A stretch of 64,000 bases of DNA from Octopus vulgaris. Taxonomy: Eukaryota. Location of the stretch: assembly GCA_951406725.2 (NCBI GenBank), contig OX597822.1, forward strand, positions 108,190,001 to 108,254,000. Reading direction: 5' to 3'. The notes under the pieces are model-generated. The model ran no database searches. It saw only the letters and a program-made list of their open reading frames with translations, and was not told where the DNA came from. Shown piece after piece: positions 3,270-62,487 of this stretch (positions are counted from its first letter, which is position 1; each line of letters starts with the position of its first letter). Made by a program: the position numbers and the translations under genes.

Positions 3270-4060
3270 CGGGGAAATATGTCTTCGTAACAGACATTAT
3301 TGTCTGTCGTCGTCAGGTTGGTTTTACGATAAATTAAATTAAGTCAACGACTACGAGTCAGAAGACGCTTTTTTTTATTCTAGCAGAACCATTTAAAATG
3401 CCTAAAAATATCAGAGTGAAATAGTAGTTTCAAGATAGAATAAGTGAGAGAACAATAACATTTGAATGTTCTTTTAATAGCTTCCATTCAAATACCGAAA
3501 ATAGCCGGCAAATCTTCGCGTGCTTGGTACGTCTGATATAGAGAGACGCTGCTGTTCTGAGCATTTAAGAACAGGTTGCTCTGTTGGTATTGTGAAGGTG
3601 GCTGTAGTGGATAGATATTTTCAAAATTAACCGGTGCTGAAAGACGGTTCGTAGAAGAAAGCTAGAATTAGAATGGTGTGGCATCTAAATAGGATTTTAG
3701 GAGGTTTCTTTGCTGTGGTGTATAGTTATAAAATGGAGACTTTGAGGCTTTCTGATTCACTGCACTAAAGTATCTCCTAGCAACGAGACAACGTTAAATG
3801 ACGTAGTTTGTTCTTTGCGTCTTTAGGGGTCAACAAAATACAAGGTAAACAATATCCGCCGTTAGGTTGTAACCTGTAAAGAGGCCTGCTCCATTAACAA
3901 ATATTTGGAGATAAAATAGATATTATGGAAAAATATATCAGAAAACAAACGATGTATCGATTAAAAGTTCATTCATAGGAAAGAGTAGTCTGTTTCAAAA
4001 ATATCAGCTGCGATACGAGCTATTCAGACTCCATTCATACACCCTATCGAAATATGCACA
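3270..4060 (-). mobile_element. Highly decayed Penelope-like element (GIY-YIG/RT relic) with hammerhead relic
   Basis: Minus strand near 3500-3555 resembles the decayed C.SLYIG.T..R...RF.EH GIY-YIG motif. Downstream in sense (3275-3320): CTGACGA, GACAGACA/TGTCTGTT hairpin, then ACGAAG. Confidence 0.4.
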
Positions 4061-5049
4061 CACATGGGCGGACAAAAACACACACGCACACACACACACA
4101 TACATATATATATATATATATATATATATATATATATATATATATATATACATATATATACAAACACGGATGCAGCACGGATTTTTGTCAGTGAACAGTT
4201 CGCGGATTTTAGCGACGAAAATATTTTGTCAAATTAAACTTAAACGTTGAAGTGAATCGAACGGCTTTTGTGTTTTTCTTAAATGGCTTACAAACATCTT
4301 CCACGCTGCAATTGTTTTCGTTTCAGCACACGATCTCAGATCAAATCACTTGCTATGCGAGTACATCTCCAATATATTTATATATATATATATATATATA
4401 TATATATATATATATATATATTTGTGAATTCATATACATACACGCATACATAGATACATATGATGGATTAAATGCTTTGGTTGAACAAAATACGAGAACA
4501 AAGGTTCGGAAAATTTCATAAAAACACCAAACACACAAACACACACACACATATATATATTTGCGAATTCATATACATAAACACATAGATAGATAGATAG
4601 ATAGATAGATAGATAGATAGATAGATAGATAGATAGATACATACATACATACATACATACATACATACATATGCATACGTAGAACAAGGACCAAAAGAAA
4701 TTGACGCGGAATCGCCAAAACTCAACATAAGATCTTTTAGGCGAAGAGATGTGTGTGCACCGAGAGCTCTATCAATACACCAACTCAACCACATATATTC
4801 AAAGACCGACAAATCTCGTAATTCAAAATCTATTGCTTGCTTTGTTAGAAATCAACCTTTATATCTCCAAATACAACCACACTCACGCACGTACACACAC
4901 ACACGCGTACACACACATACATTATCAACAGTTTGAGTACTGTTGAACGATATCATTTATTTAAAATAATCACAGAACTGCACTTAAAATTCCTGCGTTC
5001 TTAATCCTAACTTCATAGTTCGTATAGTGATACATACATATCAATCAAT

Positions 5050-5263
5050 ATATCTATATATCTGTATGTCTGTCTATCTATCTATCTATCTATCTATCTA
5101 TCTATCTATCTATCTATCTATCTATCTAATCTGTCTGTCTGTCTATCTATCTATCTATCTATCTATCTATCTATCTATCTATCTATCTATCTATCTATCT
5201 ATCTATCTATCTATATATATATATCTATATATATATATATATATATATATATATATATATATA
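5050..5263. repeat. Compound (CTAT)n-(TA)n microsatellite
   Basis: Read directly; left flank of the palindromic PLE. Confidence 0.95.
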
Positions 5264-5362
5264 TTGATAAAACGGTAAGATAACAAAAGAAAGAAAGAGA
5301 CCTCAATATTATGTAAATAGAGGAAATTTATCTATACAATATGTTACATTACTCGGTAGTCA

Positions 5363-5425
5363 AGATAAAACTCTGAGTTTCAGATGCCGAAGTGGAAATC
5401 CACAACACCATCTCTTCGGTTATCT
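5363..5425 (-). ncRNA. Hammerhead ribozyme motif (left arm, variant core CCGAAGA)
   Basis: Reverse complement of 7359-7421. Confidence 0.65.
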
Positions 5426-5619
5426 GGCTATTTGAAAACGTTATGAAAAAATACCGTTAAAAATGAAGGGAAATTACTCTGTTATAACTCTGCTTTGCCT
5501 GCGTACTTATACATCGCTCGCATTTTTCGTCATAAAAATTATATAAAAATACATAAAAATATATAAAAATATATATAAATATATAAAATCTTCTTGGGAC
5601 ATAACACAGAAAGCATGTT

Positions 5620-60234: not shown

Positions 60235-60800
60235 TTGGGTTGTACGGAAAGTTCGTGCTGATTTATAGTAGCTTACCTTTCGACTTATTTTAGAACATGG
60301 TTGGGTCCATAAAATAGGATTTGACTACACCTTTATTTAGAGCACAGTTTAAGCGATCTTTTCGTGGAAGAAGGTTTATGTTCCTAAAATCTGTGTTTAT
60401 TTTGTAACCGTTTAAAATGGAAGTTAAGAAACTTCATTTTCGGCACTTCATGCATTGGGAACTAGACAAAAATTGCTGCAGTTCGGCTAGGATGTGTTAC
60501 TTCACCCTCCATTTTCACCAGATATTGTTCCTTTGTATTTCCACTTATTCAGGTCCCTGCAGAATAGACTTAATGGTGAAAATTTCAATTCCTTGTATGA
60601 CGTAAAATGATACCTTGATGAATTCTTTGCCATGAAACCACCTCAATTCTGTGAAGAGGGTATTTTCAATTTAAAGGAAAAGTGGAGACGCATTGTCCAA
60701 CAACATGGCTCATATTTGGTTGATTAAAAATGTAATACTAAGTATTTATTAAAATTTCTGTTTCCCTTAAAAATCGGCACGAACTTTTCGGACAACCCAA
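60235..60800 (+). mobile_element. Internally deleted mariner with ~30 bp TIRs
   Basis: TTGGGTTGTACGGAAAGTTCGTGCTGATTT / AAATCGGCACGAACTTTTCGGACAACCCAA-TA; MEVKKLHFRH start; HPPFSPDI..HLFRSLQN (YSPDL motif). Confidence 0.9.
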
Positions 60801-61029
60801 TATAACAAAATGAAAGCAACAGTAATAATAATAGCCACAACAGATAGATCGTTCGAAAATAGGCAACTACGCCTCTCTCTCCCCACTCTCTTTCTCCTCC
60901 GTCTTTCTCTCCCCGTCTCTCTCTCTTTATATATATATATATATATATATATATACACATATGTGTGTGTGTATGTGTATGTGTATGTGTGTGTGTGTTA
61001 CTTTAAGATGCTATGCTTCACAGACCATA

Positions 61030-61330
61030 TTAAACTGAAAAGCAGTATATGCGAACATGTAAGGTAGGAATGCAGAATAAATTATTAAAGAGGCATATGT
61101 AATAATAAAGAATACAACAATGAAAGATGAAAACACGATAAAGAGTGGGATTGAATAGTGACATATAGGATTTTGATGGAGATGAGATTGCTGATGTAAG
61201 AAGATTATGTCTAATATAATTATCATATATCAGTCTTGGGTTTGTTGCTATGTTCTTTGAGTCAGAAGAATGGAATTTAGAGAGAAAACCTAGATTCCAT
61301 GAGATTATCTCTGTGGAATATCGGAGTTTA
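61030..61330 (+). mobile_element. Possible PLE GIY-YIG relic
   Basis: KLKSSICEHVR..SG..ESEEWNLERK relics. Confidence 0.3.
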
Positions 61331-62412
61331 TCAAATACCATGAAAAATATAAAGACGAGCGTTACAATAGTGAATGTACAGAAACCTAAGTTTCAAATGA
61401 ATATCTAGGAAAATATATCTAATACGGGACGAGATAAAAACTGAGACGGATATCACTATCAGATGTATATACAAGAAAAATTCAAATTATTCATAACTCT
61501 ATCGAGCGTGAGGGCGACCGAAGATTTCGCCTCCATATGATGCAGCAAAACAGGTAAGGTACACAGAGACACAGACACACAGATACACAGATACACAACC
61601 CCCCACACACGCACGCACAAACACACCCACGCACACACACACGTGCGCACACTCACACGTGCGCACACTCACACAAATACATATTTGTTTGAAGTGGGAA
61701 GTGATAGATAACAACGCATCGAAATCTTCCCTTGTTAAAAAATATGCTTGCAAATGTTCCATTAGTATTATTGACATTACGTATATAAACATAAAACAAG
61801 AAAGATACAACAATGAAATGCATGGTTTCATCTACAATACAAAACATGTACATGCTCTAAGATAGAAAGCAAACATTTAATACATAATGCTAAATTCATA
61901 TGACTTCCATTTGACAACAGTTTTCGTAATAATAAGGCATTGAACAAATTCATCTTCGTCATTGCAACCATGATGAGTAAATATAATTGAAAACATATTG
62001 CTATACGAACGTATCAAGACAAGAAGAGGAACCACACATTTCTTACGTTTAGGCTCCAAATATACATTTTGTCCTTCATATATAATGCCCAGCATCTCAC
62101 AAACATTACACTCTAGAAAGTATGTGTGGTATATGTATATGTATATATATATACATATATATGTGTGTGTGTAAGTATAAATATATATGATTTTTTCACC
62201 GTCATTTTGATTTTAATTCTAAATTAATATGTTCTCAAATCGGCGTAAAATACTGCAATGAATTATTTCTGCAGTATTTATTTCCCGTAACGTGGCGCGC
62301 TAGAACGAGGGCATTTGAATATAACTGTGAATATAATAGGCCGTACTACTCGTATTTTTGACCTAGTGTTAATATCTGGCGTGCAGTTCGACAAATTATA
62401 TTTTATGATGGA

Positions 62413-62487
62413 CCTCACTGATGATCTGCAAATTAATTGTGTAAGTAAAATTGCATAAATTATTAACAGTGAAACAATTGTATGGGG
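62413..62487 (+). ncRNA. Minimal hammerhead ribozyme with intact core
   Basis: Stem I CCTCA/TGGGG; CTGATGA; T-CTG..CAG-T; GAAA; C-AATT-G palindromic loop; GUA site. Confidence 0.8.

Follow-up and report, generated by a model that had tools for sequence, protein, structure and literature searches.

Type I minimal hammerhead motifs in dispersed, probably Penelope-like repeat families of Octopus vulgaris

Hammerhead motifs in the window

The window, the whole stretch of DNA analysed here, covers 64,000 nucleotides of the Octopus vulgaris genome (contig OX597822.1, positions 108,190,001 to 108,254,000). It is AT-rich and filled with microsatellites, contains pieces of LINEs (long interspersed nuclear elements) and of Penelope-like elements, and carries many motifs resembling the type I minimal hammerhead ribozyme. 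An earlier note on this DNA had listed 12 main sites (5363, 7359, 10666, 12137, 13246, 33309, 37982, 46326, 52729, 53430, 56943, and 62413), and it placed them correctly: a heptamer resembling the core, a GAAA, a stem III segment, and a stem I are present at all 12. A strict type I descriptor (descriptor 1) with a perfect core finds three matches in the window, where 40 block-wise dinucleotide shuffles average 0.10. When up to one core mismatch is tolerated and a strict palindrome demanded, the numbers are seven and 0.33. Descriptor 2, which allows C at position 4, a long stem II, and a mismatch at 10.1–11.1, finds three intact-core matches, against a shuffle mean of 0.03 and a maximum of 1 (30 shuffles). 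These three are 12137, 13246, and 62413. Five cores had been described as canonical with a GUA site, and their letters are indeed right, but 53430 and 56943, where the base of stem II is broken, do not pass descriptor 2. The 12 sites thus comprise three intact motifs, six with private damage (10666, 46326, 37982, 52729, 53430, and 56943), and three (5363, 7359, and 33309) matching families whose cores are variant.

Four further positions had been proposed as relics. The one at 21670 is a decayed member of the 33309 family, whereas those at 604, 3275, and 34213 are unconfirmed: a genome sample of about 1.7 Mb yielded no further copy of any of them, and a genome search found 3275 to be single-copy. 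No family was found for core-like matches at 11272 and 20004. Conversely, a tandem pair on the minus strand (45791/45393) and a deleted copy at 62793 had been overlooked. Searches of the window with Rfam covariance models gave no hammerhead family among the best 150 of 314 matches (E up to 10), and the window contains no tRNA genes.

The 12 main sites fall into 10 dispersed repeat families, to which the tandem pair adds an eleventh (L). Family A forms a whole insertion at 5326–7458 with inverted arms (5326–5858 and 6926–7458) that are 99% complementary. Its hammerhead at 5363–5425 (minus strand, N17 at 5369) lies in the pseudo-long terminal repeat (pseudo-LTR) of a Penelope-like element and has the family-wide U4C core, an odd stem II base, and a GUU site; the mirror copy is at 7359–7421 (plus, N17 at 7415). 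The family B insertion at 12072–13390 also has inverted arms (12072–12461 and 13001–13390). They carry hammerheads at 12137–12216 (minus), with an intact core, a stem II region of 55 nt, a GUA site, and N17 at 12140, and at 13246–13325 (plus), equally intact, with N17 at 13322. This is a young family, intact in 29 of 29 other copies. The family C hammerhead at 10666–10731 (plus) has a private C3G, C3 being kept in 29 of 29 other copies. As C3G abolishes activity in a Penelope hammerhead (PMC11167929), the copy is, judging from its sequence, likely dead.

Families D and E are loop-less minimal hammerheads in short elements. The D copy at 33311–33344 (minus) sits in an element of about 250 bp between TA repeats and shows the family-wide change of A6 to U; the decayed D copy is at 21672–21707 (plus). 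The E copy at 52729–52763 (minus), in an element of about 290 bp, has a U4C core, a private stem II mismatch, and U17, and the second E copy (62765–62797, minus) has a deletion through stem III. In family F (53428–53522, minus) the core is intact, and decay has reached the base of stem II and the palindrome of loop III in this copy. Family G (56943–57069, plus) has a stem II region of 100 nt with a private G-A mismatch, and its U4 is private as well, being shared by none of 29 other copies, of which 25 have C4. Family H (62411–62489, plus) has an intact core, a 7-bp stem I, U-U at 10.1–11.1, a GUA site, and N17 at 62482. The family I copy (46328–46377, plus) has A at core position 4, where 23 of 29 others have C, and a damaged stem II. 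In family J (37983–38022, plus) stem I is broken in this copy, loop III is of 2 nt and non-palindromic, and C17 is present. The loops described in the earlier note are present, except that the palindrome is decayed at 53430 and absent from 37982. The two family L members, both on the minus strand, form a 398-bp tandem pair. The upstream one (45707–45796) has an intact core and a 14-bp stem II, and the downstream one (45307–45398) a GUA site with N17 at 45312.

Families and their core states

The genome (2.8 Gb in 227 contigs) was searched with the 11 motifs; per family, 40 candidates received scores, and the window copy was aligned with 29 others. All 11 motifs are members of dispersed families, for which the first look gave between 59 and 2170 candidates each. 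Six of the 11 families have a canonical majority core (B and C in 29/29 copies, F in 25, H in 22, J in 26, and L in 21 of 29). C4 is the majority state in four (A, 26; E, 27; G, 25; and I, 23 of 29), and U6 in family D (28/29). The parts damaged in window copies are restored in the family majorities. Stem or loop III is palindromic in all majorities except J, which has a 2-nt AA loop, and A, with an unpaired central base. Both U-U at 10.1–11.1 and U4C are natural hammerhead variants already known, the latter reducing activity in vitro (PMC3088659). The sequences had been called mostly unrelated, and this holds with one qualification: the profiles of D (33309/21670) and E (52729/62793) match each other's copies.

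A different arrangement of hammerhead parts occurs in three decayed copies of another repeat, all on the minus strand (14003–14075, 40514–40586, and 57473–57545). First comes the 5′ strand of stem II, followed by an additional helix. Then come the 3′ strands of stem III (with C17), stem I, and stem II, in that order, the GAAA, the 5′ strands of stem III and stem I, and at the end the core. Among 15 copies, 91% of cells are paired and nine of 23 pairs show two-sided change, a level reached in 0 of 500 shuffles, in a test that favours the structure because it was drawn from the same 15 sequences. The nearest published forms are in PMC10085705. These rearranged hammerheads are more unusual than the listed motifs.

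Density in the genome

Hammerhead density was estimated from 80 arbitrary 10-kb stretches at round coordinates (800 kb), by a search of the descriptor 2 type with six shuffles as control. The sample contains 47 intact-core motifs, seven of them in one array, against 0–2 in each shuffle. This amounts to 59 intact motifs per Mb (bootstrap 95% range 38–84), against 47 per Mb in the window, and extrapolates to 105,000–234,500 in the genome. With three intact motifs where 3.8 are expected (P of three or fewer, 0.58), local enrichment in the window is rejected. Hence, the dense, multi-family "swarm" described earlier exists genome-wide, but the window is not richer in it than the rest.

Only 14 of the 47 sample motifs belong to the strict short-arm subset, and 18 have a stem II region of at least 45 nt. 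Loop III is a perfect palindrome in 26 of the 41 looped motifs and in none in each of the six shuffles, although the descriptor does not demand palindromy; H17, present in all 47, was imposed by design. At 15.3–16.3, 22 of the 28 distinct motifs have a Watson-Crick pair, and all four pair types occur. The covariation is thus one between families rather than between the copies of a family. One sampled locus (L331:2300-4550 in G000:C1:20000001-20010000) holds a retrozyme-like array of units of about 359 bp with a canonical short hammerhead, five copies having one orientation and two the opposite one.

In the same sample, the profile of family D has 21 long matches and that of E has 17, with some overlap, which puts the copy number of either family in the order of 5 × 10^4. 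Leaving aside seven unreadable D matches, one too decayed, and one of E type, A6 is absent in all 12 readable D-type copies, as it is in 29 of 29 aligned family D copies, while stems, GAAA, and palindrome are kept. A6C nearly abolishes cleavage in Mg2+ (PMC7151607); no test of A6U was found in the parts of the literature consulted. Either catalysis is dispensable for the short family D elements, or A6U is tolerated in a dimer.

Association with Penelope-like elements

The family A insertion contains, between its flanking inverted arms, an open reading frame (5647–6839, minus) that is 5′-truncated and frameshifted. It encodes the C-terminal part of a reverse transcriptase (RT), a Cys-rich linker, and a GIY-YIG endonuclease domain (Pfam E 0.0023, below the cut-off). 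A Penelope profile built from 38 of its 81 homologues, those longer than 330 aa, matches 21 of 30 family A loci, upstream of the hammerhead and on the same strand. In family B, a longer copy (L371) has a 656-aa open frame in the same position and orientation, in which RT and GIY-YIG motifs are recognisable by eye and which the profile supports. In the protein of this copy (L371:1339-3309, minus), long Ser/Asn-rich insertions separate RT from GIY-YIG, and the usual Cys-rich linker seems, by eye, to be absent.

The location 3′ of a Penelope RT/GIY-YIG frame is thus seen for A and B, and by eye or weakly for C, F, I, J, and L. Families J and I have endonuclease-like ends upstream, by eye. For C, F, and J, the profile gives weak matches upstream that may or may not be contiguous with the hammerhead. 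The origin from Penelope pseudo-LTRs, suggested earlier, is accordingly borne out for two families, and it is likely that such a frame belongs to the remaining ones too.

The layout of the copies points the same way, as 5′ truncation, tandem or inverted arms, and microsatellite targets are all found in these families, and inverted and tandem arrangements have been described for Penelope elements (bioRxiv 10.1101/2021.04.23.441226). An inverted second arm lies within 1.5 kb in 0–13 of 30 loci per family, and tandem repeats occur in 0–7 of 30 (D, 7; C, 6; H, 3; E, 3; and L, 2). The tandem spacing is about 500 bp in C, about 250 bp in D, about 530 bp in H, and 390–400 bp in L, which forms the one tandem pair of the window (45164–45943). 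Families D and E are represented by short elements of about 250–290 bp between TA repeats.

The window holds other repeats as well. A second, decayed Penelope-like fragment at 26553–28230 includes a GIY-YIG part (27867–28136, plus) and a short inverted arm at 26558–26628. A truncated non-LTR element (RT end and zf-RVT, 7600–9068) adjoins the family A insertion, around which the microsatellite flank is duplicated. An AT-rich tandem array at 50738–52117 has nested periods of about 64–93 and 251 bp.

Pairing between copies

When two hammerheads act as a double one, each core depends on its partner for stem III and for the 3′ strand of stem I (PMC4209133). Among 14 window motifs there are 42 same-strand pairs, of which three are compatible in both stems. 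The frequent palindromes are consistent with the proposed dimer mode through stem III. Cross-dimerisation had been suggested for the two copies sharing an AGCT loop, 46326 and 56943 (palindromes at 46367 and 57058). The geometry allows it, with 8 of 8 palindrome pairs and 3+3 stem I pairs, but the dimer is predicted to be 6.9 kcal/mol less stable than the separate folds, the copies lie 10.7 kb apart, the core of 46326 is mutated, and stem II of 56943 is broken. The pairing is therefore possible but unfavourable. A dimer of 52729 and 33309 is predicted to be 18.6 kcal/mol less stable than the separate folds.

The tandem pair 45791/45393 gives a dimer predicted to be 2.8 kcal/mol more stable than the separate folds. 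By itself each member is defective. The stem III changes of the two happen to pair with one another, for which the chance is put at about one in four given CpG decay. According to these models, the upstream member would supply the core and stem II, and the downstream one the GUA site, of one complete hammerhead in trans. In its natural 526-nt context this trans site has pair probabilities of 0.08–0.14, and the minimum-energy fold is predicted to be more stable by 0.5 kcal/mol. Some 0.9 kb upstream of the pair, and on its strand, lies a LINE whose read-through would reach it. This LINE (46646–50632, minus) is nearly whole. One frame, of 313 aa, bears a weak CCCH finger; the other, an endonuclease-RT frame of 983 aa, ends in a premature stop about 50 codons early. 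The LINE has a tetranucleotide tail.

Mirror copies lie on opposite strands and have no common sense transcript, and in the fold of the whole element at 12072–13390, the 13246 ribozyme is fully paired to the opposite arm. Among assembled contigs of public runs, family B sequence appears in three likely-RNA runs, in contigs that span the predicted cut site and are not attributable to the window locus. The 45791/45393 pair has almost no cover in the contigs, which carries no weight either way. The idea that the motifs could cut any read-through transcript is not upheld: most copies are damaged, mirror arms are on opposite strands, and few pairs are compatible.

Positions of insertion 5′ ends

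If cut RNA served as template, one might expect insertions starting at the cut site. The 5′ edges of families H, C, B, and G were surveyed with queries consisting of the part after the cut only. Edges at −2 to +2 number four of 39 in H (0.43 expected), two in the 31 examined of 39 in C (0.16 expected), none of 38 in B, and none of 43 in G. Pooled, this gives six against 1.16 expected (P 0.0013). Five of the six are at junctions with an adjacent inverted arm, and at one locus (L455) both arms start at the cut site, with a 2-base ambiguity. In a second set of 272 copies from all 11 families, taken from the random stretches and flanks and hence not selected by a query downstream of the cut, two edges lie at the cut against 4.8 expected, and the two sets combined give P 0.25. 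That some copies start at the cut site is therefore a mixed hint. By a wide margin, the majority of copies span the cut site, which indicates that uncut or re-joined RNA is the main template.

Edges in family G cluster elsewhere. Ten of 43 lie at +3 to +9, a TA-like stretch that could join TA targets by microhomology, and nine of 43 lie at −19 to −3 (0.79 expected), at the stem II base and the palindrome. One inverted pair (L432) is centred on the stem III palindrome. As a general inversion axis, the palindrome is rejected: among random and family loci inspected, none of 32 perfect hairpin centres lies in it. Inverted pairs of family B (L488, L490, L495, and L498) often join 12–22 bases ahead of the cut site, where a second short palindrome lies at the foot of stem II.

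Interpretation

The best explanation is that type I minimal hammerheads reside in the ends of at least 11 dispersed families, likely all Penelope-like elements or their short derivatives, and that most window copies are likely inert passengers (probability about 0.85). An active element would be transcribed across tandem end repeats. By analogy with known elements, two hammerheads may then pair through the self-complementary stem III, one core acting on the GUH site of the other; cutting by such a dimer is probably slow and may be helped by the protein of the element, as known for other elements. The Penelope RT/GIY-YIG protein would copy the RNA into TA microsatellites, usually with 5′ truncation and often with an inverted second arm, a layout that the copies display. 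After insertion, copies would decay, often at CpG sites. The ribozyme is only about 40–200 nt from the 3′ end of the element, so that very short insertions retain it, and this accounts for the high density.

Several observations weigh against this explanation. In loci extending 1.5 kb upstream, families D, E, G, and H show no link to a protein, and L shows a C-terminal resemblance by eye only. The aligned copies are the best-scoring matches to the window copy and are hence biased towards it. With C4 the family state in four families and U6 in one, activity is doubtful even before decay.

The most serious alternative is that the hammerhead fold is mainly structural, for RNA-RNA pairing or as a landing site for protein, with cutting optional or vestigial. 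Compatible with a Penelope origin, it would explain why family D, with its 5 × 10^4 or so copies, has kept stems, GAAA, and palindrome without A6, when A6C is so deleterious in Mg2+ (PMC7151607), and why the activity-lowering U4C (PMC3088659) is the majority state of four families. The crowding of family G ends at the stem II base and palindrome and the inversion at L432 also favour it. Against it, six families keep a canonical core (all 47 sample matches have H17, by design), and real cutting is suggested by those H and C copies whose 5′ ends lie at the cut site. We regard this alternative as possible, though rather doubtful.

A host-relevant layer of ribozymes cutting read-through or intronic transcripts, cross-family dimers included, is quite improbable. 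Some 59 intact motifs per Mb and a predicted complete trans site 3′ of a nearly whole LINE speak for it. However, only three of 12 listed sites are intact and only three of 42 same-strand pairs match in both stems, the motif is buried where arms are inverted, the cut site of family B is spanned by likely-RNA contigs, and published activity is low and protein-dependent (PMC4209133, PMC11167929). Finally, although loose descriptors with one mismatch allowed give 4.3 matches per shuffled window, chance origin in AT-rich repetitive DNA is refuted for the 12 main sites by the 47 sample matches against 0–2 per shuffle and by the repair of the motif in family majorities, and it may still hold for 604, 3275, and 34213, which lack family support.

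A bolder statement can be made tentatively, with the odds against it: that this is one of the densest hammerhead loads described, that copies starting at +1, head-to-head inversions among them, reveal cleavage in vivo with cut RNA as template, and that an abundant short family has spread after the loss of A6. The genome would then contain about 1–2 × 10^5 intact-looking motifs, many escaping the usual descriptors through their long arms, and the question of what Penelope hammerheads do would become answerable from genome sequence alone. In any case, this large, multi-family, and partly young set offers natural variants (long arms, U4C, and A6U) and thousands of truncation points. They could test cutting in vivo, a matter left open by PMC11167929. 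In the main text of a recent repeat annotation of an octopus genome (PMC13282606), a term search met no mention of ribozymes. If the annotated genome is of the same group, some short repeats filed as unclassified short interspersed nuclear elements may be Penelope derivatives.

Comparison with known systems

The element is of a published kind, its general features all being found in PMC4209133, and the window itself changes little. New here are the 45791/45393 tandem pair, the abundant family without A6, the mixed hint of copies starting at the cut site, and the three hammerheads of rearranged order. The literature searches, confined to the main texts of open papers, listed no work that deals with hammerheads of cephalopods or with copies in a genome that begin at the cut site. 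According to Lünse, Weinberg, and Breaker, hammerheads with reduced stem III, associated with Penelope, reportedly cleave as dimers. That work, or the supplements of PMC4209133, may already include long arms, core variants such as U4C, or examples from molluscs.

The closest likeness is to the minimal hammerheads of Penelope-like pseudo-LTRs (Cervera and De la Peña 2014, PMC4209133), which share the type I order, an absent or short palindromic loop 3, and an extra base after A9 in loop-less forms. As here, they form many diverse families per genome, mostly as single truncated copies, with opposite-strand pairs (100–700 bp apart in that study) and presumed dimer action. Their activity is low even as dimers; a review of dimer cleavage is given in PMC6765202. 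Unlike those hammerheads, with helices of 6–8 bp, many octopus motifs have stem II regions of 45–100 nt, 10.1–11.1 is often not G-C, and U4C and A6U are family states (as compared with the main text of PMC4209133). The estimate of 1.0–2.3 × 10^5 exceeds the approximately 9,000 of Xenopus tropicalis (PMC4209133) and compares with 126,247 in axolotl and more than 6,000 in a coral (PMC7229834), the descriptor used here being broader than those behind the published counts.

Metazoan non-LTR retrozymes (PMC7229834; bioRxiv 10.64898/2026.07.22.740005) are short non-coding type I units, as monomers or tandems, which the tandem spacings of families C, D, H, and L may recall; most octopus copies, in contrast, are monomers or inverted pairs. 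The Poseidon element of Anolis (PAc), whose hammerhead is protein-assisted and which can insert in vitro without cleavage (Frangieh et al. 2024, PMC11167929), has in common with the octopus families a ribozyme near the 3′ end, uncut RNA as main template, and AT-rich targets. Family A differs from it in having a Cys-rich linker of the Neptune/Nematis type. In the PAc study, no RNA reads end at the cut site, whereas in octopus a few genomic copies begin there, on mixed evidence.

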